From Planctomycetales bacterium (GTDB lineage: Bacteria; 4484-113; JAFGCY01): a stretch of 32,000 bases of DNA. A model generated the notes under the pieces. The model searched no databases and was not told the DNA's origin. It saw nothing but the letters and a program-made list of their open reading frames with translations. The stretch is from the NCBI GenBank assembly GCA_022646745.1, contig CP060262.1, positions 3,600,001 through 3,632,000 on the forward strand, read 5' to 3'. A program made the position numbers and the translations under genes. Shown here in pieces: positions 11,579-30,106 of this stretch. Position 1 is the first letter of the stretch, and every line of letters starts with the position of its first letter.

Positions 11579-11617
11579 CTCAATTCTCCGCAATTGTCAA
11601 TATTCCGATTACCTGGT

Positions 11618-12112
11618 TCAGGGTTCGATCTTGATCATTTCCCTGCTGAGCGGGTACAGCTCCTCGACCAGCATCTTGCCGCTGGCCTGGCTGATGTTCG
11701 TCAGCACGATGTACTCGGTCGCCGGCTCATAGTTCACCAGCGCCGCCGGCTTGTTGTCACCTGCCAGCAGTTCGTTCTCGCTCTGGATCAGGCCCTGCTG
11801 GGCCTCCTCCATCTGCTGCTCGATGCGTGTTCCAAGGGTCTGGCTGAGCTGCTGGTCCTCATAGGACAGCTGCATGGTCTCGCTGTCAAAAGCCGCCATT
11901 GCCGCAAGCCCGATCACGGCCGCCATGATTCCGAGGATGATTGCCAGCTTGAAGCCGAACAGGCGGACCGCCTTGCCCTTGGCAATCCTGCGCTGCCAGG
12001 CCTTCAGTCCGTTTGGCCGGCGCTCGCCGAACGCCGCACTCAGAATCTTGTACTCGCCGTAACCATAGACCCGGTCGGTGGTGAACCGCGGATCAAGCTT
12101 CGGAACCGCCAT
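11618..12112 (-). CDS. FtsL-like bitopic division protein (assigned by position and architecture only)
   Basis: 164 aa with a single TM (FGFKLAIILGIMAAVIGLAAMAAF) followed by a Q/E-rich coiled-coil-like stretch. It occupies the conserved ftsL slot between rsmH and ftsI. I recognise no sequence motif. Confidence 0.5.
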   Translation of the reverse strand: MAVPKLDPRFTTDRVYGYGEYKILSAAFGERRPNGLKAWQRRIAKGKAVRLFGFKLAIILGIMAAVIGLAAMAAFDSETMQLSYEDQQLSQTLGTRIEQQMEEAQQGLIQSENELLAGDNKPAALVNYEPATEYIVLTNISQASGKMLVEELYPLSREMIKIEP

Positions 12113-12142
12113 CGCATTCGCTCCTCAGATACCTGGCACCGC

Positions 12143-13054
12143 CTACAGCAGGCGCTTCTCATAAACCCGCAGCTTGGCCGAACGGCTGCGCGGATTCCCT
12201 TGCACCTCCTCCTCGTCAGGCTCGATCACCTTGCCCAGCATGTTCACCTGCCAGTCCGTCCGGCCGCCGTGCCGTCCGTATGGCCGCAGTGTCCGCTTGA
12301 CAATGCGTTCCTCCAGGCTGTGGAAGGTGATCACTGCCAGCCTGCCAGAGTGGCTGAGCAGTTCCACAGCCTGCCTGATTCCCTCTTCAATCTGGCGGAC
12401 TTCCCCGCCGACTTCCATCCTGATCGCCTGGAAGCTGCGCGTCGCCGGATGCGACTTGCCGCGCCTGCCAGGCATGGCCTGCTCAATGAGCGTGGCCAGT
12501 TCCAGCGTCCCCGTGATCCGTCCGCCCCTGCGCCTGGCAACGATCGCCGCGGCTATCCGCCTGCTGAAGCGCTCCTCGCCGTACTCGCGCAGGATGTGCT
12601 CCAGGGCTTCTTCCGGGTAGTCGTTGACAACGTCCTCCGCCGTCAGCGTCTGCCGGCGGTCCTGGCGCATGTCCAGCGGACCTTCCCTGAGGAAACTGAA
12701 ACCCCGCCCTGGATCGTCAAGCTGGTCAGAACTGAGGCCGAGATCAAACAGCACCCTGTCGGCGTGCTGCATTCCCACTTTGTGTAAAACCCTCTCTAGC
12801 TCTGCAATCTCACCATGCACGAGGTGCAGTTCGACGCCGTCGAACTCCATCCCCTCAAGCACGGCCCTAGCTCTTTCGATCGCCGATTGATCCCTGTCGA
12901 TGCCGATCGCGATCCCACCTGGAACCAATCGGCCAGCCACCGCGCTGTAGTGGCCCGCCGAGCCCATGGTTCCATCGATGAAGACCAGCCCAGGATCCAG
13001 GGCGAGGCTCTCAATGACTTGCTGTAAAAGTACTGGTCTGTGGCGTGGTTCCAT
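12143..13054 (-). CDS. rsmH: 16S rRNA (cytosine1402-N4)-methyltransferase
   Basis: 303 aa with RsmH/MraW signatures (HRPVLL..., DGTMGSAGH, DLGLSSDQLD, ...SFHSLEERIVK..., ...NPRSRSAKLR...). Confidence 0.92.
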   Translation of the reverse strand: MEPRHRPVLLQQVIESLALDPGLVFIDGTMGSAGHYSAVAGRLVPGGIAIGIDRDQSAIERARAVLEGMEFDGVELHLVHGEIAELERVLHKVGMQHADRVLFDLGLSSDQLDDPGRGFSFLREGPLDMRQDRRQTLTAEDVVNDYPEEALEHILREYGEERFSRRIAAAIVARRRGGRITGTLELATLIEQAMPGRRGKSHPATRSFQAIRMEVGGEVRQIEEGIRQAVELLSHSGRLAVITFHSLEERIVKRTLRPYGRHGGRTDWQVNMLGKVIEPDEEEVQGNPRSRSAKLRVYEKRLL

Positions 13055-13078
13055 CAGGCATCCCTCGCCACCGGCGGC

Positions 13079-13624
13079 CTATTCCCCATCAGGTCCGCCA
13101 TCTCCGTCGGTATCATGCGCGGGGGAATTTTCAGGAGGAGCCGGGCCATTGAACAATTGCTCAAAACCACCCGACTCCTCCCAACGCGCACAGTCAGCTT
13201 CGTAATCCTTGAGCGACCAGAGTTCGACGTACTCGCCGCAACCCACCCAGACGACGTCCTCGTAGAGGTTCATCGCCACGCGCAGGTTCTTCGGCAGCGC
13301 CATGCGGCCCTGGCTGTCAAGGCTCAGCTCGAACTTGTTGCCGAAGAAGGCCCTGCGATCCCTTTGCATCTTGGGATCGAAGAAGTTCCCGGCACCCTTG
13401 CCCGAACTGAAGGACAGACGGCTCATCACCGTCCCGACCACTTTTTCAAAGTTCTCGGGAGTCATCACCTTCAGGTGACGGTCCCATTTGAGGACAACTG
13501 CCTCATCCCCGAACTGCTGGCGCAGGTTCCTGGCAAGACTGACACGTCCCTTGGAGTCGACAGAAGCCTCGTGCTGTCCGAACAGCGACTGGCCGCCTAC
13601 CGATTCCGCATTCACCAGGTTCAC
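13079..13624 (-). CDS. mraZ: transcriptional regulator MraZ (GTG start; true start may be ~12 codons downstream)
   Basis: Two SpoVT/AbrB-type repeats, each with the DxxGR motif (DSKGRVSL and DSQGRMAL). First gene of the dcw cluster. Acidic C-terminal tail. Confidence 0.85.
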   Translation of the reverse strand: MNLVNAESVGGQSLFGQHEASVDSKGRVSLARNLRQQFGDEAVVLKWDRHLKVMTPENFEKVVGTVMSRLSFSSGKGAGNFFDPKMQRDRRAFFGNKFELSLDSQGRMALPKNLRVAMNLYEDVVWVGCGEYVELWSLKDYEADCARWEESGGFEQLFNGPAPPENSPAHDTDGDGGPDGE

Positions 13625-14000
13625 CTGAGCCCCTTTGCAATTTCAGGTCACCGTTGGGAATTTATTCCCCTTTCAGGGACGTTCCTTTCGGTAGCAGCAT
13701 GATATCCGGTTTGAAATCTTCAAACAAGGGCAAATTAGGGACTTTGCTTAGTATCCGTTTAGTTATTGATGGAAAATTTCTGAAATAATTCAGAGGACTA
13801 TCTGTCGCAGTAACTGGCGTAATTGCGCACAATGTGGCTGAATGCAGTGTTGATCAGGCCTCAGGGGCGATCATGCAAGGCCGATCAGTCCCTTGTGCAG
13901 GGTTATCAAGGGACAGTAAGGGAAACATTCCCACAACAGGGCTGAAAAAGGACCGCGCAGAGGATGGCTGGACCTGCTGTACTACATATATATTTGGGCC

Positions 14001-15176
14001 GTGCTGGAATGGCTGGTGATCGGTGGCGGTGTGCAGGGCACCTTCGTGTCCCATGTGCTGTCCGTTCGACTGGGGGTCAGCCGGGATGACATCCGCGTGC
14101 TCGATCCACATGTGAATCCGTTGGCGCGCTGGCAGCAGACCACCGATGCCTGCGGGATGCGCTTCCTGCGCTCACCGGCGGCGCACCACGTCGGGATCCG
14201 TACCAATGAACTGCTCGACTGGACAAGGGCCAACTGCCCGGACTGGCGCAGGGAGTACCTGCAGCCCTACCTGAGACCCTCCCTGGCCTGCTGGAATGCG
14301 CACGCCAAATCAGTGATAGATGAACATCGACTGGAGGAAATGCGCATCCGTGGCAGTGCGCTGGACATCCACCGGAGTGATGACGGCAGCTTCCATGTGC
14401 AGACTTCTGTGGAATCGATCCACTCTAAGCGGATCGTGCTTGCGACCGGTAACAGCCAGCCCCTGCACTACCCCGCCCTGCCGGTGGATTCAGACCTTGC
14501 CGGCGAGCGCATCCGGCACCTGTTCGACCCGGCCTTCAGGCGCAGTGACATCCAGGCGGGTGAGAATGTCGTGATTGTCGGCAGTGGTGTCAGTGCCGCC
14601 CAGCTGGCAATCCGGCTGGCAGGGGAACAGGGCTGCAGGATACAGGTCCTGACTGACGGGATGCCGCAACTGAGCTGGTTTGACAGTGACCCCGGCTGGA
14701 ACGGGCCACGCCTGCTTTCCCGGCTGGCCGCTATTGCCGACCCGGAGGAGCGCCAGCGGATGGTCAGTGAAGCGCGCATCCGCGGTTCATTCCCCGGCGA
14801 CACCGCTGCCAGCCTGCTTGAATGCACCATCCTTGGAAAAATGACAATGCTTACAGGAAGGCTTGAATCCGTCTGTCAAGCCGGCAACTGTGTCCATCTT
14901 CGTTTCAATGATGAACATCTGACAACGGACCGCCTGGTATTCGCCACCGGATTCAGCACTGCAGTACCTGCTGCGCCACTCGTCGGGCAGCTCAGCGCGC
15001 GACTGGGACTACCGGTCTCCTCATGCGGCTGGCCTGTTGTCAACCAGTACTGCGAATGGGCAGCGGGTGTGCTTGTCTGCGGTGCGCTGGCCCAGCTCGA
15101 ACTCGGTCCGGTGTCCCGCAACATCAGCGGCATCCGCAGCTTTGCGCGCAGACTGGTTGAGCGATACAACGCCTGA
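14001..15176 (+). CDS. FAD/NAD(P)-binding oxidoreductase (two-dinucleotide-binding-domain flavoprotein)
   Basis: 391 aa, GTG start. N-terminal GxGxxG (VIGGGVQG), second dinucleotide motif (VIVGSGVSAAQLA), and LATG / FATGF motifs typical of flavoprotein reductases/monooxygenases. Substrate cannot be inferred. Confidence 0.7.
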   Translation: MLEWLVIGGGVQGTFVSHVLSVRLGVSRDDIRVLDPHVNPLARWQQTTDACGMRFLRSPAAHHVGIRTNELLDWTRANCPDWRREYLQPYLRPSLACWNAHAKSVIDEHRLEEMRIRGSALDIHRSDDGSFHVQTSVESIHSKRIVLATGNSQPLHYPALPVDSDLAGERIRHLFDPAFRRSDIQAGENVVIVGSGVSAAQLAIRLAGEQGCRIQVLTDGMPQLSWFDSDPGWNGPRLLSRLAAIADPEERQRMVSEARIRGSFPGDTAASLLECTILGKMTMLTGRLESVCQAGNCVHLRFNDEHLTTDRLVFATGFSTAVPAAPLVGQLSARLGLPVSSCGWPVVNQYCEWAAGVLVCGALAQLELGPVSRNISGIRSFARRLVERYNA

Positions 15177-15282
15177 CAGCCATCCGGCCTCCTGCAGGGC
15201 CAACCCTTGATCACGGCAGGCTCTATAAACAGGAATTTCGAGCCTGGTGAGCACTGATCCACCGGGTATTCACACTAATCCG

Positions 15283-15444
15283 TTATCCACATGCCATACA
15301 ATCCAGAATCACACTTGACACTTAACAAGTGTTGGGGTTACAATCTGGAATGTCAATGGGGTTGTGGATACCAGGGCGGAGAATCTATACGGATGGAAGT
15401 ATGAATCAACCACTTTCATACACTTATCCACAAAGTTATCCCCG
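15283..15444. promoter_or_regulatory. Cluster of DnaA-box motifs upstream of nrdJ
   Basis: TTATCCACA at 15283-15291 (+, 9/9). TGTGGATAC at 15363-15371, which is GTATCCACA on the minus strand (8/9). TTATCCACA at 15424-15432 (+, 9/9). TTATCCCCG at 15436-15444 (7/9). The surrounding region is visibly AT-richer than its flanks. Confidence 0.55.
15318..15332. promoter_or_regulatory. 15-bp palindrome ACACTTAACAAGTGT (candidate operator, NrdR-box-like half-sites)
   Basis: Perfect 7+1+7 inverted repeat ~360 nt upstream of the nrdJ ATG. It is flanked by TACAATCCAGAAT (15297-15309) and TACAATCTGGAAT (15339-15351). Confidence 0.3.
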
Positions 15445-15689
15445 CAACCTATTGAATAGCGCACATGGAAGTGCTATGTTTGTACCTGCGAAGGCTGCCG
15501 GGTTGCTGGACGGTCCGGTTAATGAGGATATTGCTGTGGGGAAGAGCTGTCGGTCGAAAGACCAGCTACCGGTTCCGCGCCGGTCACGGTTCCAACAGCG
15601 GTCCATAACTATTCGCAGGCGGTTTCGGGTCGGCAGAGGGTTGAGTATGGTCCGCCCGACGGGATGAGTATCAGCACCAGAGGTCGTGC

Positions 15690-18600
15690 ATGCGAATCGA
15701 AAGAAGGTTTACTGAAAAGGGACAGTCTCCATACGAGCAGATCGATTGGAGCAGCCGCAACAGCGTGATCTACAACCCGGACGGCAGCGTCGTCTTCGAG
15801 ATGAAGGACGCGCAGATCCCGGCGGACTGGAGCCAGCTGGCAACGGACATCATGGTCTCCAAGTACTTCCGCAAGGCCGGAGTGCCACAGACGGATGCCA
15901 GTGGCAAGCCCCTGCTTGATGCGGATGGCAATCCCGTGCTTGGCCCCGAGAATAGTGCCGCCCAGGTGATCCATCGCCTGACCGGCTGCTGGACGGACTG
16001 GGGACAGCGCTATGGCTACTTCGACACTGAGGAGGATGCCACTGCCTTCCGTGACGAGCTGGCCTGGTCACTGCTGACGCAGATGGCCGCCCCCAACAGC
16101 CCGCAGTGGTTCAACACCGGACTGTACTGGGCCTACGGCATCAACGGCCCCAGCCAGGGACATTACTATGTTGACGCCGACAGCGGTGAACTGCGTGCAT
16201 CCGAGGATGCCTACAGCCATCCGCAGCCACATGCCTGCTTCATCCAGAGCGTACGCGACGACCTCGTGAACGAGGGCGGGATCATGGATCTCTGGGTGCG
16301 TGAGGCACGCCTGTTCAAGTATGGCAGCGGCACCGGCACCAACTTCAGCGCACTGCGCGGTGAGGGTGAGTCCCTCAGTGGCGGCGGCCAGTCCAGCGGA
16401 CTGATGAGCTTCCTCAAGATCGGTGACCGTGCCGCTGGGGCGATCAAGTCCGGCGGCACCACGCGCCGCGCCGCCAAGATGGTCTGCCTGGACGTTGACC
16501 ACCCGGACATCGAGAAGTTCATCAACTGGAAAGTACACGAGGAGGACAAGGTCGCCGCACTCGTCGCCGGTGGCAAGGGCCGCTTCGACACCGCCTTCGA
16601 GGGCGAAGCCTACAGCACCGTCAGCGGACAGAACAGCAACAATTCCGTGCGCCTGACGAATGCCTTCCTCGAGGCCGCTGTCAACAACAGCAGCTGGGAC
16701 CTCATCAACCGCACGAATGGCGATGTCAGCAAGACGATTGACGCCGCCAGCCTCTGGCAGCAGATCGGCTATGCTGCCTGGCGCTGCGCCGATCCCGGCG
16801 TGCAGTTCGACACCACGATCAACGAATGGCATACCTGCCCGCAAAGCGGCCGGATCAATGCCTCCAACCCCTGCAGCGAGTACATGTTCCTTGACGACAC
16901 CGCCTGCAACCTGGCCAGCCTGAACCTGATGAAGTTCATTGACGAGGCCACGGGCGACTTCGACCTGGACAGCTACCGGCACTTCATCCGCCTGTGGACG
17001 ATCGTGCTCGAGATCTCAGTGCTGATGGCGCAGTTCCCCAGCCGCGAGATCGCGCAGAAATCATATGACTTCCGTACGCTCGGCCTCGGTTATGCCAACC
17101 TCGGCACCTGCCTGATGGTGATGGGCATCCCCTATGACAGTGACAAGGGCCGGGCGATCGCTGCCGCGATGACTGCGATCATGACTGGCGATTCCTATGC
17201 CGCCAGTGCCGAAATGGCAGCGGAACTCGGGGCCTTCCCGAAGTATGCGGAGAACCGTGAATCCATGCTGCGCGTGATGCGCAACCACCGCCGCGCTGCC
17301 CATAACAATGCCGCGACTGACTATGAGGGATTGTCAATCAATCCGCAGGGCATCGAGCATGCTAGCTGCCCGGACTACCTCGCCAGCCAGGCGATTGCCA
17401 GCTGGGACCGCGCTTTGGAGCTCGGTGAGCAGCATGGCTACCGCAATGCCCAGACCACTGTGATCGCCCCGACCGGTACCATCGGCCTGCTGATGGACTG
17501 CGACACCACCGGTGTCGAGCCGGACTTCGCGCTCGTCAAGTTCAAGAAGCTGGCGGGCGGCGGCTACTTCAAGATCATCAACCAGAGCATCCCGCTCGCG
17601 CTTGCCAACCTCGGCTATGACCAGAAGCAGATCGGTGAGATCCGCCGCTGGGTGCTGGGCAGCAGCCGACTGGACGACCATTCGATCAATGCCGACAGCC
17701 TGCGTGAGCTGGGCATGAATGACAACGACATTGAGCGCATCGAGGCCCAGCTGCCCGGCGTGTTCGAGCTGCACTTCGCCTTCTCGCCCTTCACCCTCGG
17801 TGAGGAATGCATGCAGCGCATGGGCTTCAAGCCCGAGCAGTACGACGCCCCCGGCTTCAACCTGCTGCGTGCGCTGGGCTACACCGCCGAGCAAATCAGC
17901 CGTGCCAACGACCACATCTGCGGCATGATGACGGTGGAGGGTGCACCGCACCTGCGCGAGGAACACCTGCCGGTGTTCGACTGTGCCAACCGCTGCGGCC
18001 GCCATGGCCAGCGCTTCATCCACCACACCGGGCACATCCGCATGATGGGGGCCGTGCAGCCATTCATCAGCGGTGCGATCAGCAAGACGATCAACATGCC
18101 AAATGAAGTGAGCGTGGAGGACATCCAGGAGTCATACCTGCTGTCCTGGCAACTGGGCCTGAAGAGCAACGCCCTGTACCGTGATGGCTGCAAGCTCAGC
18201 CAGCCGCTGAACACAAAGGCGGATGCGCAGGAGGATGACAGCGAGGTACTGGAGGAGGTTGCCATCGCCGAGCAGGCACTGCAGCCAGAGCAGCATGAAA
18301 GCCTCGTCAACCCGGCGAACTACACCCCTGCGGAGCAGCGCGTGCCGGTCAGCCCGGCCGAGGCCCGCACCCTGCAGATCCACGCCCCGCTGCGCCGCCC
18401 GCTGCCAAGGAAGCGCAAGGGCTTCACCTTCGAGGGCCGCATCGGCGGGCACAAGCTCTACCTGCGCACCGGCGAGTACAGCGACGGCACGCTCGGCGAG
18501 GTCTTCATCGACATGCACAAGGAAGGCGCCGCCTTCCGCAGCCTGATGAACTGCTTCGCGATCGCCGTCAGCAAGGGACTGCAGTACGGCGTACCGCTGG

Positions 18601-19130
18601 AGGAGTTCGTTGACACCTTCGTGTTCACGCGCTTCGAGCCGAGCGGCACCTGCGACCACCCGAACATCAAGATGGCGCAGAGCGTGATCGATTACGTGTT
18701 CCGCGTGCTCGGTATGGAATACCTCGGCCGCACGGACTTCGTGCAGGTCAAACCCGCCGCCGATGAGCTGATCCTCAACCAAAACGAGCGCCAGATCCGC
18801 CTCGAGGCCCAGCCGCTGGTCAGCGCCAGTGAGGCTGCCCGTGCGGACCGCGAAGCCGGTGATGCCCCCCTGCCCCATGGCAACGGCAATGGCGGAAACG
18901 GGCATTCAGTCCATCCGCCCCAGCCGGTGCTCAGTGGCAATGGGAATGGAAACAGCAACGGTAACGGGAATGGCAATGGTGCGCGGCATGCCACCAGCAA
19001 TGCGATGGAGGAGCAGCTCAGCTCAATGATGGGTGACGCCCCCTTCTGCGAATCCTGCGGGCATGTGACGGTGCGCAACGGCTCCTGCTACAAGTGCCTC
19101 AACTGCGGTACCAGCCAGGGCTGCAGCTAG
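15690..19130 (+). CDS. nrdJ: class II (adenosylcobalamin-dependent) ribonucleotide reductase, long form
   Basis: 1146 aa. The N-terminus [23 protein letters not shown]...[12 protein letters not shown] and core motifs (...[21 protein letters not shown]..., ...[32 protein letters not shown]...) are typical of NrdJ. There is a C-terminal CxxC...CxxC zinc-ribbon tail (CESCGH...CYKCLNCG). GAGG lies 7 nt upstream of the ATG. Confidence 0.93.
19103..19128 (+). repeat. Direct repeat copy 1 (last 26 nt of the nrdJ coding sequence)
   Basis: CTGCGGTACCAGCCAGGGCTGCAGCT recurs at 22080-22105 with one mismatch (T/C). Confidence 0.9.
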
Positions 19131-19290
19131 GCAAGAACTAACAGCATTCAGGTATTCCAGCAAATCCCCATTAGTTGGGAAGTCTGTGAAGTCCAGTTAT
19201 ACTCTTCTTGGGTGCTGGACCTGTCCGGCACTGGTTGGAATACAGGAACCCTGTGTTACACCGAAGCGGCTGAATGAACTGGGGGTTTGC

Positions 19291-22071
19291 ATGCGAACAA
19301 TCTTTGTGATTTCGTGCTTACTATTGCTGCAACTTGTTGCCTGTAGCAAAGTTAATACTCCTGAGTTCTCTGCCAGTCCACAGGTACAGCCGACTGGCAT
19401 TCCCGGTTCCCCTGCTTCACCTGATTCGGGTAGCCCAGATGTCTCACCGCAATTTCCGCTGGATCTCAGTCCAGTAGCTGCCAGAAACTCCATCACTTCC
19501 AATACCGGTCCCGGTACATACCAGGTACTTGGGAAAAGCAGCCACTCGGAGTCATTAACAGGTACGACAATTCATGATGCCGCATTGGCCATTGACAGCT
19601 CGATTGACGGGCTGGCTTACGGCATCTGGCGCATCCAGATGAAAGATTCGCAACCCGGCCTGATCCGACTGGATGTCAATCTCCACCAGAATAATGCCGG
19701 ACTGCCTTCTCAGTTCATGGTTGGCATAGCGGACTATTCCAGTGGTCGCTGGAATCTCCAGGGGCCATTTACTGATGGCCATCTTCTTCTTACAACCGCC
19801 GCAGATGTGCTGGCTGGCAGCGACTATCTCTCTCCTGGCAATGCAATGTTTGTTTCCGTGATCTGCTCCGATGACAATCGGCTGGACATGCTGGCGGTCT
19901 GTGCCGCTGAATTGATTGCCGTTGACCAGAGTCCCCCGACGGCGATCAGCGGAGTCAGCGCTACTGCCATTGCTGGTGGAATGTACCTTGAATGGTCGCC
20001 CAACCTCAATCCGGACCTGGCAGGATACAGGCTGCTTTACTCTGAGGTCAGCTTCGAGGATGCTGAAGATCCCAATGTGCAGATCATGCCCAGCCTGGCG
20101 GGAACAACAAGCTACATTGTCAGGCATTCTTCTCCGGAACTGTATGTACGTGTGCAGGCAGTTGACAGGACTGGCAACCTCGGTCCCCTGAGCGAACAGG
20201 TAATGGTACAGCCCCTCCCTGACGAGCCGACGCAGTTGCTGCTGAATGTCGATGCCCCCAGCGGAAAGTCCGGAACGGTCTTCACACTCCAGACTGGCGG
20301 TGCTGCAGAAATTCTGCTGGATCTTGACTACGACGGATTCTTTGACGACGGCAGCTGGGATGGCAATCCAATCAGCATAGATTCATTTGGAAGGACCGGC
20401 ATCCTGAGGTTTCGGGCACTCGGTGAGAATCCTGGCAATGCCGTTTCCATTGCGGAGGTTTCAGTCTTTGTCGATGGCAACGCCAGTCCAGTAGTCGGGC
20501 TCACCGCCAGCGTTTATGCGGGGGACGCCCCACTGCTTGTGGACTTCACCGCAGACGCACATGATAATGAAGACCCGCTGGAAGAACTTACCTTCAAATG
20601 GGACCTTGACGGGGATCATGTGTACGAACTGGAGACCGAATCACCTGAAGTCATCAGTGAATTGTATGAGTTCCCTGGTGTTTACTATGTTTCCTGCCGT
20701 GTTTTCGATACGGATGGCGCATATGGCTATGACGATTTACCGATACATGTCTACGGTGAAGGACTCGAGGACCAAATGCCGGTTGCAGTTTTGTACACGA
20801 ATCCCACAAATTTTGGGATTGCCCCTTGCGAGGCAAACTTCAACGGCTCATCAAGCAGTGACCCAAATGGAACCATAGAACTCTACGAGTACGACTTCGA
20901 AGGGGATGGCATCTACGACGTGCCCACCACTGAATATGACCTCGTTTTCCATATTTATCAGGATCCAGGAACTTACTATCCCAAGCTTCGAGTCACTGAC
21001 AACGACGGATGGCAGGCCGTGGAGCAGAGACCTTTGGAGATAGCAGATCTGGAAGGCTGGTCAACCTACAAGGTCTACGATGGTGAGCAGTATGAATTTG
21101 ATGCAATCAGGCTGGGGATATCCGGCTCAAGTCCGGTGTTTTGCAATATCTGGGAAGATGCACCATTTGTCCGCTTCATAAACAGCCTGGACCCTGGAGG
21201 CAGTTCATGGAGCGATCCCGTAGTGGTCAGTACTGTCAGTCAAGCTGCTGGCGTTTCCATCATGGCAGTAAATGGCCTACCCGCCTTCTCCTTCGAACTG
21301 GACGGTTTTCTCAATTTCGTGCGTGCTGCTGACAATGCCGGATCCACCTGGTTGACTCCAGTACAGGCAGCTCCAATAATTGGTGCCAGTCACGCTTCAA
21401 TGGCGATCGTGGATGGCAATCCGGCAATCGCATTCCAGTACGGATATGATATCAACTGTGAGCTGCACTATGTGCGTGCCGCGGACGCGTCTGGTGACAG
21501 CTGGAATGATGTCGTCGTCGTTGAGAGTGAGATTCGTCCGGGAGGTGCCCCGCACCTGGCCGTGGTTGCCGGCAATCCCGCCATCTGCCACCATGAGTTC
21601 ACATCTTCGGACCTGCTGTACGTCCGTGCACTTGACAGCGAGGGAACCACCTGGGGCAACAGCATTGTGGTGGCCTCTGCTGGCGATGTCGGATTGCAGA
21701 GCAGCATGGAAATTGTCAATGGAAAGCCAGCTATCAGCTTCTACAAGGCGTACTTTGATCTGATGTATGTACGTGCGCAGGATGAGTTCGGTGCAAGCTG
21801 GGGAAGCCCTGTTCTCTTGTCTGAGGATTACACTAAATCCAGGGAGCCGATGAAGCTGATGCTTGTCGATGGGCGTCCTGCTGTTTCATATCCGGACAGG
21901 ATGCTTGGTGTCATGCAATTCCTTCAGGCCGAGGATATGAACGGCGCCAGCTGGAATGAGCCACTGCCTGTTTCCAATTCTATGGGCTCGCAGATGGTTG
22001 TGCTTTCAGACGGCCGTCCGGCATTCTATGAATATTTTGATAATGACATCCTGCTTACAGTCAGGGACTGA
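19291..22071 (+). CDS. secreted lipoprotein with an FN3-like domain, two PKD domains and a C-terminal ~7-blade Asp-box (BNR) beta-propeller
   Basis: I place the start at the ATG at 19291 (MRTIFVISCLLLLQLVAC|SK, a lipobox). FN3-like segment (...GGMYLEWSPNLNPDLAGYRLLY...). Two PKD-like segments (...VDFTADAHD...FKWDLDGD...YYVSCRVFDTDG... and ...ANFNGSSSSDPNG...YDFEGDG...YYPKLRVTDNDG...). Seven G-x-PA...[YF]VRA-x-D-x-x-G-x-x-W repeats. GC is clearly lower than in neighbouring genes. Confidence 0.8.
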   Translation: MRTIFVISCLLLLQLVACSKVNTPEFSASPQVQPTGIPGSPASPDSGSPDVSPQFPLDLSPVAARNSITSNTGPGTYQVLGKSSHSESLTGTTIHDAALAIDSSIDGLAYGIWRIQMKDSQPGLIRLDVNLHQNNAGLPSQFMVGIADYSSGRWNLQGPFTDGHLLLTTAADVLAGSDYLSPGNAMFVSVICSDDNRLDMLAVCAAELIAVDQSPPTAISGVSATAIAGGMYLEWSPNLNPDLAGYRLLYSEVSFEDAEDPNVQIMPSLAGTTSYIVRHSSPELYVRVQAVDRTGNLGPLSEQVMVQPLPDEPTQLLLNVDAPSGKSGTVFTLQTGGAAEILLDLDYDGFFDDGSWDGNPISIDSFGRTGILRFRALGENPGNAVSIAEVSVFVDGNASPVVGLTASVYAGDAPLLVDFTADAHDNEDPLEELTFKWDLDGDHVYELETESPEVISELYEFPGVYYVSCRVFDTDGAYGYDDLPIHVYGEGLEDQMPVAVLYTNPTNFGIAPCEANFNGSSSSDPNGTIELYEYDFEGDGIYDVPTTEYDLVFHIYQDPGTYYPKLRVTDNDGWQAVEQRPLEIADLEGWSTYKVYDGEQYEFDAIRLGISGSSPVFCNIWEDAPFVRFINSLDPGGSSWSDPVVVSTVSQAAGVSIMAVNGLPAFSFELDGFLNFVRAADNAGSTWLTPVQAAPIIGASHASMAIVDGNPAIAFQYGYDINCELHYVRAADASGDSWNDVVVVESEIRPGGAPHLAVVAGNPAICHHEFTSSDLLYVRALDSEGTTWGNSIVVASAGDVGLQSSMEIVNGKPAISFYKAYFDLMYVRAQDEFGASWGSPVLLSEDYTKSREPMKLMLVDGRPAVSYPDRMLGVMQFLQAEDMNGASWNEPLPVSNSMGSQMVVLSDGRPAFYEYFDNDILLTVRD

Positions 22072-22079
22072 ATGCTGAC

Positions 22080-22105
22080 CTGCGGCACCAGCCAGGGCTG
22101 CAGCT
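22080..22105 (+). repeat. Direct repeat copy 2 (orphan copy of the nrdJ 3' end)
   Basis: CTGCGGCACCAGCCAGGGCTGCAGCT followed by GA. In frame it still spells CGTSQGCS-stop, identical to the NrdJ C-terminus. With the 6 preceding nt the match is ~28/32. Confidence 0.9.
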
Positions 22106-22112
22106 GATTCCA

Positions 22113-22140
22113 GGTTGCCGGTTGCAGGGTTCAGGTTGCT
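22113..22140 (+). repeat. GGTTGC short tandem-repeat tract
   Basis: GGTTGCcGGTTGCagGGTTCaGGTTGC immediately after repeat copy 2. The same repeat unit occurs as (GGTTGCT)n at 26639-26668 inside dnaE2. Confidence 0.75.
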
Positions 22141-22234
22141 GTTTACAGCCAAGGCTGGAAAGCAACTGAATCCAGCTTGATTGAGCATGGAAATGCATGT
22201 TCGCCGACCGGTCGGAATGGAATAGAATTCGCTC

Positions 22235-22645
22235 ATGCCTGTTGCATCACCGAGCCCCGTGCTGTTCATCCTTTATGTCTCCGACCAGCAGCGCAGTTGC
22301 GACTTCTACCGCAAGGCACTTGAGCTTGAGCCTGAGCTGGACGTACCGGGGATGACGGAATTCCGGTTGAATAGCGGTGCGATGCTCGGCCTGATGCCTG
22401 AGGCGGGCATCGCGCGGATCATCGGTGACGATCCGGCCCCCGCCAGTGGCAATGGCATTCCGCGTGCCGAACTGTACCTGTCCGTGGATGACCCCGGAGC
22501 TGCGATCGGGCGTGCAATCGAGGCCGGCGCTGTGATGCTCAGTGTGTTGCAGCCACGTAACTGGGGCGACATTGCAGGATACGTACGCGACCCTGACGGC
22601 CATGTGCTGGCCTTCGCAAGTTGCAGCGTCTCATTGACTCAGTGA
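22235..22645 (+). CDS. VOC (glyoxalase/bleomycin-resistance/dioxygenase) family protein
   Basis: 136 aa. The size and pattern (...VLFILYVSDQQRSCDFYRKALELEP...AELYLSVDDPGAAIGRAIEAGA...GYVRDPDGHVLAF) match single-domain VOC proteins. Confidence 0.75.
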   Translation: MPVASPSPVLFILYVSDQQRSCDFYRKALELEPELDVPGMTEFRLNSGAMLGLMPEAGIARIIGDDPAPASGNGIPRAELYLSVDDPGAAIGRAIEAGAVMLSVLQPRNWGDIAGYVRDPDGHVLAFASCSVSLTQ

Positions 22646-22731
22646 CTCCATGACTCTCCTACCTGCTGGAAACCAGCGCTCTGACTGTTCTTACTGTTCA
22701 ACTCCCTCTGCCCCCTGCGAGCTATTTTTAC

Positions 22732-22772
22732 TACACATTTGTATTTTCCACGTTATACTATACACATGTATG
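22732..22772 (+). promoter_or_regulatory. Putative dinB promoter with two operator-like sites
   Basis: -35-like TACACA (22732-22737), 16-nt spacer, -10-like TATACT (22754-22759). Near-palindromes TACACATTTGTA (22732-22743) and TACACATGTATG (22761-22772). The same layout occurs upstream of dnaE2. Confidence 0.45.
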
Positions 22773-22792
22773 GACAAGCGGAAAGAATCATC

Positions 22793-24178
22793 ATGCTGGC
22801 GGACATGGACTGCTTCTTCGTTGAGGTGGAGCGCCTGCACCGGCCGGAGCTGCGTGGCCAGGCCGTGATCATCGGCGGGCAGCCGCACCGGCGCGGCGTG
22901 GTCTCCGCCTGCAGCTATGAGGCACGGCGCTTCGGGGTGCACAGCGCGATGCCGATGGGCGAGGCCTACCGCCGGCTGGGGCTGGACCCCTCCCATCCGC
23001 TGGCCGAGGGGCAGACCATCGAGCGCCGCGGCGTGACGGTCAACTTCCTGCACAGCGGGCTGCATGGCAACTATGGGCTGTACAGCCGCCGCGTGCAGGA
23101 CGTGGTCTCGTCGCTTGTGCCGGTGTTCCGGCCGAAGAGCGTGGACGAGTTCGAGATGGACATCACCGGCTGCGAGACCATCTTCCGGCGCGACTACGGC
23201 GGGATCGTCGAATTCGCCGAGGAGCTGCGCCGCCGGGTGAGAAGCGAGGTCGGCCTGCCGATGTCAATCGGGATCGGCCCCGGGCGGCTCGTCGCCAAGA
23301 TGGCCAGCCGCCACGCCAAGCCCGACGGGGTGTTCCGTGTGCTGCCGCAGGAGGCCGTGTCCTTCCTCGCCCCGCATGATGTGCAGGACGTGCCGGGGAT
23401 CGGCCCGGCCACGGCGGGCACACTGCGCGACATGGGGATCAACCGCGTCGGCCAGCTGCTCCAGCAGGACCAGGCGCTGCTGCGCCAGACCTTCGGGATC
23501 GGGATGTGGAGCCTCGTCAATACGCTGAAGCACGGCGAGGACCGCGCGGTGCCGCCGCCCAACACCGGCGGCGGGATGAGCGAGCATGGCTCGATGGGGC
23601 TGCTGATGCGCGAGGACGGGCATGAGTCGCCGGCGATCGGCTTCGGCCCGGCGCGCGGCAAGCCGAAGAGCATTGGGCATTCGGTGACGCTGGAGCGCGA
23701 CACGCTGGATACGGCGCTGATCAGGCGCACGCTGTGGCGCCTGACGGAGGATGCCTGCCGGCGGCTGCGGGAGAAGGACCTGGCGGCCGGGCATGTTACT
23801 GTCACGATCCGCTACAGCGACTTCCAGACCATCAGCCACGGCGTGATGCTGAATGAACCGACGGACCTCGACCGCGTGGTCTATGAGACGGCGCTGCGAC
23901 TGTTTGACGAGGCGCGCACGCGCCGCCTGCGCATCCGCCTGCTGGGGGTGCGCCTCGAGAAGCTCAAGCCCGGCCTGAGCCAGCTCAGCCTGTTCGAACC
24001 GAAGAGCGTGACGCGTGAGCGCCAACTGACGCATACGCTGGATGCCCTGCGCGAGAAGCACGGCCGCGACGTGGTGCTGCTCGGCCCGGGGGTGAACCAG
24101 ATCGGCAGCGAGCGCATCAGCACGGATAGCCAGGCCGGCGTGTCAGTGAGCATGAGCCCGCAGCGGAGTGCGGTGTAG
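22793..24178 (+). CDS. dinB: DNA polymerase IV (Y-family translesion polymerase)
   Basis: I place the start at Met 19 of the ORF (MLADMDCFFVEVE..., the canonical catalytic DMDxFF motif), with GGAAAGAA upstream. Also SACSYEARRFGV, SIGIGPGRLVAKMAS, VQDVPGIGPATAGTL. 461 aa, longer than typical because of a linker insertion. Confidence 0.9.
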   Translation: MLADMDCFFVEVERLHRPELRGQAVIIGGQPHRRGVVSACSYEARRFGVHSAMPMGEAYRRLGLDPSHPLAEGQTIERRGVTVNFLHSGLHGNYGLYSRRVQDVVSSLVPVFRPKSVDEFEMDITGCETIFRRDYGGIVEFAEELRRRVRSEVGLPMSIGIGPGRLVAKMASRHAKPDGVFRVLPQEAVSFLAPHDVQDVPGIGPATAGTLRDMGINRVGQLLQQDQALLRQTFGIGMWSLVNTLKHGEDRAVPPPNTGGGMSEHGSMGLLMREDGHESPAIGFGPARGKPKSIGHSVTLERDTLDTALIRRTLWRLTEDACRRLREKDLAAGHVTVTIRYSDFQTISHGVMLNEPTDLDRVVYETALRLFDEARTRRLRIRLLGVRLEKLKPGLSQLSLFEPKSVTRERQLTHTLDALREKHGRDVVLLGPGVNQIGSERISTDSQAGVSVSMSPQRSAV

Positions 24179-24190
24179 GGGCGGGGCACT

Positions 24191-24308
24191 GGAGGTCATT
24201 CCCATGGAATGACAGGTTTGCAAGCCCATGGCTTGCAGCAGGCCAGATGTGAAGGGAATGTGCCAATCCATGGCACTGGCCTCCTGCCAGACCGTGGGTC
24301 TGGCCTCC
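24191..24308 (+). repeat. 118-bp nested-palindrome (MITE/REP-like) element, copy 1
   Basis: Four 19-nt hairpins (8-bp stem, 3-nt loop): GTCATTCC-CAT-GGAATGAC (24195-24213), TGCAAGCC-CAT-GGCTTGCA (24219-24237), a degenerate GCCAATCC-ATG-GCACTGGC (24262-24280), and GCCAGACC-GTG-GGTCTGGC (24286-24304). The ends GGAGGTCA... and ...GGCCTCC are inverted. Confidence 0.8.
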
Positions 24309-24333
24309 CCCCTCCCCCGGTTACAATCCATCC

Positions 24334-25416
24334 ATGAACATCCCAAACGGCATCTGCATCGCGGCGCTCTGCTGCCTGCTTGGTTGCGGCGGTGGCTCCA
24401 GCCCCGATCCCGGCAGCAATGGAAATGGCAACGGTAACGGTAATGGCAATGGAAACCAGCCGCCCGCCGGGACGCAGGTCAGCAACAGCCGCCTGCGCAG
24501 TGTGACGGACTGGGTCTACTGGATCCAGGATCCGGATCTCACGGCGCTCGCCGCCGGCGACAGCCAGCTCGTGGTTATTGACTATTCCCAGGACGGCACG
24601 CAGGACACGGCCTTCAGCCCAGCGCAGATCAGCGCGCTCCAGGCCGGCGGGCGGCTCGTGGTCTGCTATCTGAGCATCGGCGAGGCCGAGGACTACCGCT
24701 TCTACTGGGGCCAGCAGGACGGCAGCACGGGGGCGGACTGGGGCAGTGACCCGCCCGCCTGGCTGGGGCCGACCAACCCGGACTGGGCCGGCAACTACAA
24801 GGTGCGCTACTGGGACCCCGGGTGGCAGCAGCTGATCATTGCCAATCCCGGCGGGCATCCCGTGCTGGGGGACGCCCCAAGCTACCTCGACCGGATCATC
24901 GATGCCGGCTTCGACGGGGTCTTCCTCGACATCGTGGACGGCTTCGAGTACTGGGGTCCGGCGGAGGACGGCGGCATTGGACAGCGTGCGCAGGCTGCCT
25001 CTGACATGGCGGACTTCCTCGCGGCGCTGGCAGCGCATGCCCGCAGCCGGGACGCAGACTTCATCATCTGCCAGCAGAACGGCGAGGCCCTGATCAGCGA
25101 TGAGCTGGCCCAGCCACTGGACAGCTCACGGCGCCAGGCTGTGCTTTCGGCGGTGGACTGGCTCAGCGTGGAGGACGTGTTCTACCAGGGCGAGCTGGAT
25201 GCCAACAATCCGCTGGATCCTGACAACTACCGCATCGGCCTGATCGATGCCTACCGCAACGCGGGTGAGTTCGTGAGCATCATCGACTACTTCGATGCCG
25301 CTGAACCTGGCTACAGTGCGGCAGCCGAGGCGGACTTCCTGAACCGCAGCAAGGCCCGCGGCTGGCTGCCCTATGCGGGAGTACGGGCGCTTGACCGCCT
25401 GGGCAGCGGCGGCTGA
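24334..25416 (+). CDS. GH114-like (TM1410/endo-alpha-1,4-polygalactosaminidase-type TIM-barrel) putative glycoside hydrolase lipoprotein
   Basis: 360 aa. Lipobox MNIPNGICIAALCCLLGC|GG followed by a (GN)n linker. The motifs ...VVCYLSIGEAEDYRFYW..., ...YKVRYWDPGWQ..., ...GFDGVFLDIVD... fit my recollection of the GH114/TM1410 family. Confidence 0.7.
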   Translation: MNIPNGICIAALCCLLGCGGGSSPDPGSNGNGNGNGNGNGNQPPAGTQVSNSRLRSVTDWVYWIQDPDLTALAAGDSQLVVIDYSQDGTQDTAFSPAQISALQAGGRLVVCYLSIGEAEDYRFYWGQQDGSTGADWGSDPPAWLGPTNPDWAGNYKVRYWDPGWQQLIIANPGGHPVLGDAPSYLDRIIDAGFDGVFLDIVDGFEYWGPAEDGGIGQRAQAASDMADFLAALAAHARSRDADFIICQQNGEALISDELAQPLDSSRRQAVLSAVDWLSVEDVFYQGELDANNPLDPDNYRIGLIDAYRNAGEFVSIIDYFDAAEPGYSAAAEADFLNRSKARGWLPYAGVRALDRLGSGG

Positions 25417-25426
25417 GGGGAGGCCC

Positions 25427-25544
25427 GGAGGTCATTCCCATGGAATGACAGGCCTGCAAGCCCATGGCTTGCACTTTGAAGTGATTCTGTCCGCGTTGCC
25501 AATCCATGGGATTGGCCTCCTGTCAGGCCATGGGCCTGACCTCC
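25427..25544 (+). repeat. 118-bp nested-palindrome (MITE/REP-like) element, copy 2
   Basis: Same four-hairpin layout: GTCATTCC-CAT-GGAATGAC, TGCAAGCC-CAT-GGCTTGCA, GCCAATCC-ATG-GGATTGGC, GTCAGGCC-ATG-GGCCTGAC. The 26-nt terminal inverted repeats GGAGGTCATTCCCATGGAATGACAGG and CCTGTCAGGCCATGGGCCTGACCTCC match at 22/26 when one is reverse-complemented. Confidence 0.85.
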
Positions 25545-25630
25545 CGCATACCACGTCATTCAGCGCGACCCGGATGCGCTGATGCGCAGCTGCAGCGCTA
25601 GACCGCCGAGTGCTTGCATGAGGCGGCGAA

Positions 25631-28600
25631 TCACACCGGTGCATAGCTCGCGGGCTTGCTGCCCTTGCGGCGGCCGCCCTCGGCATCGTCGGCAACGAGG
25701 CGGTCCAGCTCATCGAGGCGCAGGAGCTTCAGCTCCTGGATTGACAATGTGCAGGTGCCGAACTGCTCCTCCACCTTGCCGGTGATCAAAAACGGCCCGG
25801 TGTAGCGCGTGAGCGGGGCGTAGCGGGCGTACTTGTCAGCGCGCAGGGTGCATTCGAAGGTGCCGGTCAGGTCCTCCATGCTCATGAACTTCATCGAGTT
25901 GCCGGGCCCGATGAATCCTCCCATCGTATGCGAGTCCGTCCCGCGGTTGCGGGACGGTGAGGTACCAGGGACCTGGGACCCGGGACCGGAAGAGGTTTCG
26001 GGTTTCGGGTTTCGGGTTTCGGTACCCGTAGCGGCGGCTTCCAGCCGCCGTCCGGCAGTTGCCGGTAGTGAGTTGTCAGTTTCAGCAAATCCATGGGATT
26101 GGCCTCCTGTCAGGCCATGGGCCTGACCTCCTACTCCCTCCTGACTCTTGCCAGTTCCCCGTTCCCCGTTCCCTGTTCCATCCCCGCGGCCCACGGCCCA
26201 GTCGTCGGTCATGCCGCCGCGCCTGACCAGGCCGAGGTCGGCCGCTGTGTCATTCAGCTCGTAGTCCTCGTCGCCACCGATGCCGCTCACGCTCAGTTCA
26301 TCCTCGTCGGCGGTGTACTGCTCCGGGTCATCATGGTTGGCAGCCTGCAGCTCGATCATGTCCTGCACCTGCCGGCGGCGCGAGAGGTCGACGCGCTTGG
26401 TGGCGATGCACCAGCCGAGCATCCGCACCCAGCGCCCGGCGTAGCGCGGCATCTCGCGGGCGTCGACAAGCCCGCTGACGAGGTTGGCATACAGGCTCAG
26501 GGGGTGGCGGCGCACCAGCATGCCGTAATGCTTCAGCTCGAGCGCGCAGAGCTTCAGCTCGTCGTAGTCATCGAGCCGTCCGGCCATGCGGCGGCGGAAC
26601 TCCTCAAGGCGAGCCGTCTCGTCGAATGGCAACTGGGAGGTTACTGGTTGCTGGTTGCTGGTTGCTGGTACTCCGGCAGCCGGCCCGTTTGACATCCCCA
26701 CCCGTGGATCTCCTTCGTCGATCCCCTCCCGGGATGTCCGGCTGCCAGGATAGGGATCAGAGATGCGGGATGCGGGATGAGCATTCCTGACACGCTCATT
26801 GCTCATTGCTCCCTGCTCATTGCCGGAGGAGTAATTGTCAGCTTCAGGGCTGACCTCCGTTCCATGGTCCCCGATCCCCGGTCCCCGGTCCCTGACCCGT
26901 CGCTTCGGCGTCGAATGCCGCAGTCCCGCTTTCCTCTCCTGCTGGGCCAGCCAGAGCAGCTCCGGGCGGCTCATGCCGAGGCTGTCCAGCGCCCCGGCCA
27001 GAACCAGCAGGTCGAGCTCCGACTCCGAGGGCCCGCAGCGGCGGATGAAGTCCGGCAGGCTGCGGAAGGGGCCATGCCCGCGGGCGGAAACGATGCGCTC
27101 GGTGATGGCAATCGGCAGGCCCTTGATGACTACGAGGGGCAGACGGATTGAGGAGCTTGGAGGTTGGAGTGTGGAGGTTGGAGCAGATGAGGGACCAGGG
27201 ACCCGGGACCCGGGACCAGAAGAGATTGGAGCTTGGAGGTTTGAGGTTGCAGTAGCGGCGGCTTCCAGCCGCCGGCTGGAGGGATGAGCAGTCCCGCCAC
27301 GCTCCTTGCTCATTGCTGCCTGCTCATTGCTCTGTGTCCTCTGTGCCTCTGTGGTTGACAATATGTGTTGTGCGGCTTGCACCGCACCTCCATCCTGGTC
27401 CCCGGTCCCCGATCCCTGATCCCTGTTGTCAGCCTCACGGCTGGGCTCCGCTGCCAATCCATGGGATTGGCCTCCTGTCAGGCCACGGGCCTGACCTCCT
27501 TCTCCCATCCCACATCCCCCATCCCGCATCCCGCATTCCGCACTGTAGTTCAGCCCCGAATGGTTGACATCCGGTGGCAGGATCGACAGGCCGAGTCGCT
27601 CGCATTCACTGATGTAGGCCCGCGCGCCGTAGAAGCCGCCGCCGTTGTCAAGCACCGCCGCCATGAACTGCGCCGGGTAGTGCGCCTTCAGCCAGGCCAC
27701 CTGGTAGCTCAGCGTGGCGAAGCTCGCCGAATGCGCCTTGCAGAAGCTGTAGCCGCTGAAGCTCGCCAGCTGCCGCCAGATCTCCAGCGCACTCGCCGTA
27801 TCCATCCCGCGCGCCTCGCAGCCGCTGACGAACTTCTCGCCCAGCGCCAGCATGCCGTCATGACGGTGCGGCTTGCTCATCACGCGGCGCATCAGGTCGG
27901 CATCGCTGCGTGACAACCCGGCCAGCTCATGCGCCACGCGGATCACATCCTCCTGGTAGATCATCACCCCATGCGTCTCCGGCAGCAGCTCCAGCATGCG
28001 CGGATGCGTGCGCAGCTCATGACGCGCCCCGTTCACACGGCGGATGTACTCCTGCATCATCCCGCTCTCCGCCACGCCAGGGCGGATCACGCTGGATGCC
28101 GCCGTCAGGCCGAGGAAGTCGCGCACGCCCAGCCGCTTCAGCAGCTGGCGCATGGCCGGGCTTTCGATGTAGAAGCAGCCCATCGTTTCGCCATGCCTGA
28201 CGAGCGCGTTCGTGGCCGGGTCCTGCGAGACCTGCTCGTGGTCCGTCAGGTCCGGCTTCAGGCCCTGTTCCCTGAGCGTTGCCAGGGTGTCCTCCAGCAC
28301 GCCGAGGCTGCGGTTGCCCAAGAGGTCGATCTTGATCAGCCCGACGGCCTCCACCGGGTGCATGTCGTACTGCGTGACGACGAAGCCCTTGGCGGCGCGC
28401 TGCAGACCGGTGAAGTAGTCCACATGGTTCGGCGCGATCACGATCCCGCCGCAGTGGATGCCGAGGTGCCGTGGCCGTCCGGCGAGCCGCGTTGCCAGCG
28501 GCAGCACGTGGCAGTATGGTTCGCTGTGCAGGTCCACGCCGCGCATCTCCGGGAAGTCGCGCACCACGCTGTCCAGCCCCGAGGCGCGGATGTTCGGCAG

Positions 28601-29908: not shown

Positions 29909-29957
29909 GGCTCAGCCCCGCCTTGCCCCGGGGGCCGGCCCCTCCGCCGTCCTCTTA

Positions 29958-29996: not shown

Positions 29997-30006
29997 TATT
30001 GCGTAG

Positions 30007-30057: not shown

Positions 30058-30106
30058 CTACATTATTCATTTCACCGCCGGCAATACCCCGAGCCTCCCC
30101 GCTCCC

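Follow-up and report, generated by a model that had tools for sequence, protein, structure and literature searches.

A 2.95-kb foreign segment with a single lipoprotein gene lies in the 3' end of nrdJ in a Planctomycetales bacterium

The nrdJ locus and its duplicated 3' end

The DNA investigated here (the window: 32,000 nucleotides (nt) of Planctomycetales bacterium, GenBank assembly GCA_022646745.1, contig CP060262.1, positions 3,600,001 to 3,632,000 of the forward strand) carries nrdJ, an essential ribonucleotide reductase gene, and, 2.95 kb downstream of its end, a second copy of the last codons of that gene. We show that a recent ancestor gained, within the final 20-30 nt of nrdJ, a 2.95-kb foreign segment with one lipoprotein gene, that this insert supplies the nrdJ end now used, and that the original end persists untranslated 2.95 kb downstream, where it is still joined to its native flank. 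The features concerned, in window positions, are as follows.

15690-19130, plus strand: nrdJ, class II (B12-dependent) ribonucleotide reductase, 1146 amino acids (aa), with a C-terminal Cys-rich tail (Pfam)
19103-19128, plus strand: left direct-repeat copy (attL-like), the functional nrdJ 3' end, CTGCGGTACCAGCCAGGGCTGCAGCT; similarity extends to 19098
19129-22079, plus strand: inserted foreign segment, 2951 nt, 52.9% GC; absent from the relatives L003, L002, L177, L178, and L180
19131-19290, plus strand: left spacer, 50% GC, with a sigma-70-like site and an imperfect 28-nt inverted repeat
19142-19151, no strand assigned: left arm of a perfect 10-nt inverted repeat, CAGCATTCAG, 13 nt inside the left repeat copy
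19291-22071, plus strand: cargo lipoprotein gene, 926 aa, with the lipobox LVAC and PKD domains; GC content at third codon positions (GC3) 0.56
22068-22077, no strand assigned: right arm of the 10-nt inverted repeat, CTGAATGCTG, 2 nt inside the right repeat copy
22080-22105, plus strand: right direct-repeat copy (attR-like), the orphaned ancestral nrdJ 3' end, CTGCGGCACCAGCCAGGGCTGCAGCT; similarity extends to 22075
22108-22234, plus strand: ancestral downstream flank of nrdJ, with GGTTGC-type short repeats and a long imperfect hairpin; homologous in L002, L003, L177, L178, and L180
22235-22645, plus strand: glyoxalase/VOC-family gene, the native right-hand neighbor of nrdJ in the empty-site relatives

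The NrdJ protein matches the Pfam families Ribonuc_red_lgC (4e-127), Ribonuc_red_2_N, and TSCPD, and the insert now supplies or adjoins the last codons and the TAG stop of its gene. Enzyme turnover in class II ribonucleotide reductases requires the Cys-rich tail at the end of NrdJ, so that an insertion should persist only if it restores this tail.

The recurrence of the nrdJ end with one mismatch, as described in the initial annotation, was confirmed. The two 26-nt copies differ only at 19109/22086 (T/C), the ungapped similarity between them extends over 31 nt (19098-19128 and 22075-22105, 28 of 31 positions identical), and the window holds no third copy of the 26-mer at up to three mismatches. 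None of 100 dinucleotide-preserving shuffles yielded two matches to the 26-mer, whose own sequence is imperfectly palindromic. The orphan copy reads TGC GGC ACC AGC CAG GGC TGC AGC TGA, and so indeed encodes CGTSQGCS followed by a stop (the ancestral TGA, at 22105-22107). The boundary letters are ...CAGCT/AGGCAAG... on the left and ...GCTGAC/CTGCGG... on the right.

The orphan copy also lies in frame with the lipoprotein gene, whose stop is directly followed by an 11-codon mini-ORF (open reading frame) within 22069-22107 (TGA ATG CTG ACC TGC GGC ... TGA); that this mini-ORF spans the orphan copy is probably a coincidence.

Both junctions in independent assemblies

The genome is apparently metagenome-derived, and short repeats can mislead assemblers, so that the duplicated end might be an artefact of assembly, or else a chance repeat. 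An exact-protein look-up of the glyoxalase retrieved 17 contigs that share this arrangement and come from 10 or more metagenome assemblies. Contigs L164-L167 and L081, from five independent assemblies, span both junctions with both repeat copies unchanged; the right junction is present in five further assemblies; and L164 shows zero differences from the window over 18846-24712. Because both junctions recur in at least five independent assemblies, an assembly artefact, which the initial annotation had named as a possible undoing of the repeat, is excluded. Together with the shuffles, and with the homology of the flank to that of relatives, which accounts for the orphan copy, these data make an explanation by artefact or chance barely credible.

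Among the 10 contigs listed of the 17 with the exact glyoxalase protein, none carries an excised site. An exact look-up of the window NrdJ found no protein record. A protein search with the NrdJ C-terminus returned mostly fragments, of which P0108 and P0084 sit in other contexts and P0006 (86% identical) was not located, and a metagenome scan with the C-terminal 300 aa gave matches of at most 59% identity, which served as a background set only.

Relatives with an empty site

The closest relatives were found by a scan of one genome per species. L003 ('UBP7 HKST-UBA01') stands at the same species level as the window genome (NrdJ 99% identical in aa; 95.7% nt identity over 7.1 kb), followed in NrdJ aa identity by L001 (AC1.30; 91%), L002 ('Planctomycetales' Ww346; 86%), and L004 and L010 (both 70%). 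In L002 and L003, the nrdJ end runs directly into a homologue of window 22106-22139, and in L178, L180, and L177, which were found via relatives of the glyoxalase and whose nrdJ genes show 79-81% nt identity, the glyoxalase gene stands directly after nrdJ. The comparison proposed in the initial annotation thus gave five relatives (L003, L002, L177, L178, and L180; 79-96% nt identity) in which the site is empty, with nrdJ joined directly to the sequence that follows 22105 in the window.

Stop codons and flanks identify the older of the two ends. The nrdJ stop is TGA in five of the six relatives compared (TAG in L177), and a CAGGTTGCC-like flank follows nrdJ in all six (diverged in L177 and L001) as well as the orphan copy in the window, where the functional nrdJ ends in TAG and is followed by unrelated low-GC sequence. 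Since the empty-site relatives share the stop and flank of the orphan copy, the orphan and everything to its right are ancestral, and 19129-22079 was inserted. Judged from these alignments, the orphan represents the ancestral end of nrdJ, and today's TAG evidently arrived with the insert. Integration into the 3' end of nrdJ with delivery of a replacement end, as first proposed from the window alone, is supported by the empty sites, the stop codons, and the assemblies, as well as by the base composition.

Composition and cargo of the insert

The GC fraction is 0.529 for 19131-22079, against 0.616 for 1-19130, 0.648 for 22106-32000, and 0.628 for nrdJ, so that the earlier spot counts (48-53%, against 58% or more in nrdJ) were about right. 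The lipoprotein gene deviates likewise in its third codon positions (GC3 0.56, against 0.69-0.90 in all 17 other window genes) and in codon usage, where its distance from the pooled genes is the window maximum (1.60, against 0.34-0.54 for the other long genes).

The single gene reported between the repeats is the sole credible gene of the insert; ORFs in other frames have no Pfam match. It makes up 94% of the insert, with 162 nt of non-coding DNA before it and 8 nt after it. In the left spacer, a consensus match to a sigma-70-like site (TTGGGA-17-TATACT) lies at 19175-19203, and the arms of the imperfect 28-nt inverted repeat lie at 19141-19168 and 19227-19254; the spacer is likely to be the gene's own promoter and leader, brought along by the insert.

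The predicted signal sequence ends in …LLLQLVAC and is followed by a family-specific N-terminal domain, an Fn3-like stretch, and PKD domains (PKD_4, 1e-15 in Pfam); matches in the Protein Data Bank are confined to PKD modules of collagenase and endoglucanase. Further on, six Asp-box-like motifs (aa 632-888) are spaced by 47-51 residues, which suggests a six-bladed beta-propeller of the sialidase/BNR kind. A role in surface glycan binding or degradation is a reasonable guess from this domain architecture, and the cargo probably alters the cell surface or the glycan handling of the strain.

The N-terminal domain (residues 60-215; window 19468-19935) defines a small uncharacterized family with 158 representatives in 1.84 billion clusters; nearly all members are 800-1100 aa long and carry the domain at residues 75-220, and identity to the query nowhere exceeds 45%. 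Searches gave no close homologue of the lipoprotein, which is essentially unique in 5.8-15 billion proteins. Its PADLOC and NCBIfam scans gave no meaningful match, and neither a source nor further copies of the insert appeared in the viral contigs, plasmids, and phages searched.

The reported absence of an integrase holds. We detected no integrase, transposase, or excisionase, nor a remnant of one, in the insert (alternative frames included) or in the main ORFs of the 32-kb window, and tRNA and Rfam scans of the window found no tRNA or Rfam family.

The nrdJ-glyoxalase gap as a variable site

The gap between nrdJ and the glyoxalase gene also varies among the relatives. In L001, it measures 4.5 kb (L001:13454-17936) and contains a 953-aa lipoprotein, 32% identical to that of the window over the N-terminal 500 aa but with a PQQ-type propeller instead, together with a zinc-ribbon protein, a YbjQ-family protein, and a membrane protein. 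This insertion starts a few tens of nt past the nrdJ stop, its junctions differ from those in the window, and no orphan nrdJ end was found in it, the best local score lying within the shuffle null. In L003, the glyoxalase/VOC gene present after nrdJ in all other relatives is missing, and only 245 nt (L003:13430-13674) separate nrdJ from a dinB-like gene.

The L001 protein bears on the possibility of an ancestral lipoprotein gene at this position that the relatives later lost by deletion, for instance through recombination of one 26-mer with the other; such an ancestral gene is what the initial annotation had named as speaking against an insertion. That concern is borne out so far as a distant homologue does occupy the same gap in L001, and precise deletion between the repeats would recreate the exact L003 sequence (GGT, TGA, and flank). 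However, the five empty-site genomes include outgroups at 79-85% nt identity; the GC3 of the gene, 0.56, is far outside the native range; the L001 gene is only 32% identical where the flanks reach 87-91% in nt, and has other junctions and no repeat; and a duplicated gene end would still demand an insertion event. We therefore consider an ancestral lipoprotein gene very improbable. The nrdJ-glyoxalase gap is a variable hotspot, and the L001 homologue does not make the window gene ancestral. As the N-terminal domain family is small, a chance co-location of the L001 and window lipoproteins is nevertheless not a trivial assumption; this gap may be a preferred site of related cassettes, or an old variable locus may exist there.

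A second duplicated nrdJ end in L010

In a screen of some 157 nrdJ loci, a repeat of the gene's own 3' end further downstream turned up only in the window and L010. The duplicate in L010 is 137 nt long (13307-13443 and 15386-15522, 93% identical) and brackets 2 kb of DNA with 45-55% GC in a genome of 65% GC. Its cargo comprises two ORFs with GC3 values of 0.50 and 0.53, against 0.90 for nrdJ, one of which matches the PADLOC candidate defence family PDC-M14A (2.7e-15). We found no integrase in this insertion. L004, whose nrdJ is 86% identical in nt, provides the empty site.

The left part of the first L010 copy resembles L004, while the second copy carries the L004 stop, so that the polarity is the same as in the window. 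With an 86%-identical proxy for the empty site, this polarity is suggestive of a crossover. In both the window and L010, the identity between the repeat copies runs out within the stop codon; with each insert came a full nrdJ end that has a different stop.

Directly after the orphan copy, L010:15523-16870 holds a gene for a REP-associated (repetitive extragenic palindromic) tyrosine transposase (15618-16070, minus strand; 77.8 bits in NCBIfam, where the cut-off is 80) and clustered repeats of the GGGTAGGGCCGA type, and this stretch is missing from L004.

An orphan nrdJ tail beside a phage integrase

Among viral contigs, 24 loci encode a NrdJ tail, namely 23 full-length viral nrdJ genes and one orphan tail, which is given here with the integrase next to it.

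L198:3338-4781 (= L186:8579-10022): orphan NrdJ tail and integrase on the phage contig IMGVR_UViG_3300031949_000086

The tail itself (3338-3484; 147 nt, 49 codons) has no NrdJ body and is 74-82% identical in nt to bacterial nrdJ 3' ends. It sits between a phage replication-initiator gene and a tyrosine integrase (Pfam Phage_integrase, 1e-27; phrog_216) that starts 0.59 kb downstream. Within 4.5 kb downstream of the tail, the ORFs of 17 distinct viral loci include at most one integrase-family match, that of L198 itself. This anatomy makes the tail and integrase a candidate attP aimed at the nrdJ 3' end. An integrase specificity for the nrdJ tail thus plausibly exists, with no link to the window insert.

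In another viral contig, L187 (1864-5913), the NrdJ similarity breaks off at residue 395 and resumes after ~1.1 kb without a match, which suggests an intein or an intron.

For the bacterial loci, a regular-expression screen for recombinases downstream of nrdJ gave almost no matches even in 2.4 Mb; it was insensitive, and we discarded it. In its place, a Pfam scan of 125 downstream ORFs was used, which excludes only families matched by at least three ORFs.

Mechanism of insertion

We favor site-specific integration at the nrdJ 3' end, of which the insert would now be an integrase-less remnant resembling a cis-mobilizable element (CIME), and we put the probability of this reading at roughly 0.6. 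The nrdJ end (attB) would have undergone a Campbell-type reciprocal crossover with a look-alike attP on a circular element, catalyzed by a site-specific, probably tyrosine, recombinase acting within ACCAGCCAGGGCTGCAGCT, a 19-nt block that is identical in both copies. Under this scheme, the left copy would consist of (i) target sequence on its left and (ii) element sequence on its right, and the right copy of (i) element sequence on its left and (ii) target sequence on its right. The recombinase gene would have been lost by deletion or would always have acted from another element, and the remnant would now be fixed and move only with help in trans. A restored attB would join nrdJ ...GGT...GCAGCT to GATTCCAGG, and the circular junction would connect 22079 to 19129.

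The mismatch between the copies fits this scheme. The left copy has GGT (T at 19109), as in the closest relative L003, and the right copy has GGC, yet carries the TGA and flank of the relatives; this combination is what a reciprocal crossover inside the repeat, with its exchange point within the 19-nt block, would leave. Moreover, the last 89 nt of nrdJ contain two differences from L003, and sliding-window comparison with L003, L001, and L002 revealed no clear foreign tract in nrdJ, its 3' region being slightly more divergent and of low complexity; we infer that the exchange was therefore confined to ~19-31 nt. Such a length is short for RecA-dependent recombination and normal for site-specific recombination.

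The extent of the exchange bears directly on the idea that homology drove the insertion without a site-specific recombinase. In a RecA version of that idea, a circular or linear fragment from another strain, with the cargo already downstream of nrdJ, recombined by Campbell integration through its nrdJ-like end; in an illegitimate version, homology-facilitated joining of donor DNA left a residual duplicate of arbitrary length. Either would account for the different duplicate lengths (26-31 nt in the window, 137 nt in L010), which would reflect the nrdJ content of the donor, for the lack of an integrase in both cases, and for a supplied end with its own, different stop, like that of a foreign nrdJ allele; the lipoprotein natively downstream of nrdJ in L001 makes donors with this gene order plausible. 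However, efficient RecA recombination has a minimal length that ~19-31 nt would at best just reach, the upstream 89 nt match L003 at 98% identity with no donor-type tract, and none of our searches yielded a donor sequence. In the illegitimate version, moreover, the orphan copy should be of the recipient type (GGT, as in L003), but it carries GGC. On balance, a homology-driven insertion appears unlikely.

A third explanation arises from the architecture of the insert, which might be a minimal, purpose-built cassette, that is, a single gene joined to a folded mimic of the nrdJ end, moved by a host recombinase or one acting in trans and never equipped with its own integrase, in a mode resembling that of integron cassettes or Xer-exploiting elements. 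The share of the gene in the insert (94%), with its stop 8 nt from the repeat, agrees with such a design, as do the absence of an integrase from both the window insert and L010 and the palindromic character of the 26-mer. The perfect 10-nt inverted repeat lies inside both ends, its right arm overlapping the lipoprotein stop codon, and a match of this length was reached by 11 of 5000 random pairs of 60-nt segments; a reconstructed circular junction folds as a hairpin that encloses the 26-mer (as DNA, -16.2 kcal/mol, z = -2.4). Yet the inverted repeat, like the fold, is a post hoc observation, inverted repeats of 10-12 nt are common in this region, and L010 has no terminal inverted repeat comparable to that of the window, so that the significance of these structures is uncertain. 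There is, besides, no GTTRRRY-type core or attC architecture at the boundaries, and our searches found no second copy of a cassette whose lipoprotein is close to unique. A purpose-built cassette therefore seems quite unlikely.

Several observations weigh against site-specific integration followed by loss of the integrase. The placement of the crossover depends on a single informative mismatch in the window and on the L004 proxy in L010. Neither the insert nor the 32-kb window contains an integrase, an excisionase, or a remnant of either, and both bacterial cases are integrase-less. The gene fills nearly all of the insert, with 162 nt before it and 8 nt after it, and a decay origin would need very clean deletions. 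The repeats measure 26 nt in one case and 137 nt in the other, a difference that would equally follow from a mechanism that uses no fixed site. L198 is a phage with no relationship to the window lineage, and its putative attP role is deduced from anatomy only. Finally, no integrase-bearing element was seen at nrdJ in ~100 bacterial loci, within the limit of the family-level Pfam scan given above. As to the two possibilities offered in the initial annotation, an island in decay or a cassette that another mechanism moved, the evidence leans to a site-specific recombinase that acted from elsewhere or was lost.

A further-reaching proposal is that the nrdJ 3' end serves as a docking site for undescribed minimal, integrase-less cassettes, shuttled by phage- or host-encoded recombinases, each consisting of one or two accessory genes (the lipoprotein gene; the candidate defence gene of L010) and a mimic of the NrdJ tail. 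We regard this as unlikely; if true, the nrdJ end would be a hotspot of cassette exchange in an uncultured phylum.

Comparison with known elements

The kind of event, integration at the 3' end of a protein gene, is already known. In Escherichia coli, e14 and phage 21 integrate into the 3' end of icd and supply a replacement end, the original C-terminal fragment persisting as the pseudogene icdC at the far end (PMC13626634). Like these elements, the window insert is bounded by repeats that are the duplicated end of the target gene, nrdJ is restored by the element-side copy, and the unoccupied attB is found in relatives (L003, L002, L177, L178, and L180). The 137-nt duplicate of L010 and the 147-nt tail beside the integrase of L198 are also close to the e14/icd anatomy. 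Unlike e14 and phage 21, which carry their own integrase and span at least 15 kb, the window insert has one gene in 2.95 kb, no recombinase beside its att-like site, and a duplicate of 26-31 nt; the target, too, is nrdJ and not icd. A text search of the literature found no report of nrdJ as an attachment site.

The 'classical' CIMEs of streptococci are 1.2-13 kb in length, carry cargo, and occupy the 3' ends of fda, rpsI, and rpmG between an attL and an attR, without genes for integration or transfer (PMC5704250; PMC7563491). Like them, the window insert has no genes for integration, excision, or transfer, its single gene encoding a lipoprotein, and, at the level of sequence, it keeps both att-like copies, which are invariant across assemblies. 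It differs from CIMEs, which derive from integrative and conjugative or integrative and mobilizable elements and are usually recognized by their tandem position with a functional partner of the same specificity, in that our clade searches found neither a parent nor a partner element.

Other mobile elements share fewer of its properties. Cassettes of the SCC (staphylococcal cassette chromosome) type insert at the 3' end of staphylococcal rlmH (orfX) between short direct repeats that include the gene end; they are moved by large serine recombinases (Ccr), and some pseudo-SCC elements are ccr-less. The window insert resembles them in sitting at the very 3' end of a conserved housekeeping gene, in its direct repeats, and in lacking a recombinase, but neither a Ccr-type recombinase nor a related sequence was seen in the window. 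With integron cassettes, it has in common a single tightly packed gene, a short site, and no recombinase of its own; unlike them, it has no attC (R''/L''-L'/R') and no GTTRRRY at its boundaries, the window has no attI or intI, and the insertion occupies a protein-gene end, not a cassette array. An insertion sequence or transposon would leave an exact duplication of 2-14 bp, whereas here the duplicate spans 26-31 nt with a mismatch and different stops, there is no transposase, and the inverted repeat is only subterminal and 10 nt long. Integrative mobile elements exploiting Xer (IMEX) are flanked by dif-like 28-bp sites (11-6-11) at the dif locus; that the window repeat is the coding end of nrdJ argues against this class, to which the palindrome of the 26-mer bears only a weak resemblance.

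The insert thus documents a recent strain-level gene gain, with empty-site controls, in an uncultured lineage (UBP7 / 'Planctomycetales' metagenome-assembled genomes) with no characterized mobile elements so far. The window, L010, and the L198 phage agree in pointing to the nrdJ 3' end as an attachment site, and the two integrase-less bacterial cases form a small data set on whether such islets originate by decay or by mobilization in trans. The 19-nt core together with the orphan-tail signature offers a simple handle for finding such insertions in genome searches.

Neighboring genes and further repeats

The insert lies in core chromosome. To its left are nuoB/C, a dcw (division and cell wall) cluster (mraZ, mraW, ftsI, murE, murF, mraY, murD, and ftsW), a pyridine-nucleotide oxidoreductase gene, and nrdJ; to its right, the glyoxalase/VOC gene is accompanied by a dinB-like polymerase gene, a gene for a GH114 hydrolase, dnaE, and the gene of a beta-eliminating lyase.

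Near-identical 12-nt tandem units of the AATGGCAACGG type occur at 18877-18979 and at 24406-24452, where they encode Asn-Gly runs (NGNGNGN) in the NrdJ linker and in the GH114 protein, respectively (35 nt, 91%). A composite repeat of ~60-150 nt is present in three copies, 75-82% identical (24170-24319, 25406-25555, and 26084-26142), that flank the GH114 gene and precede dnaE. It is built of CCATGG-centered palindromes, for example GGTCATTCCCATGGAATGACAGG and TGCAAGCCCATGGCTTGCA, and resembles REP sequences or miniature inverted-repeat transposable elements in appearance; one unit is also found in L003.

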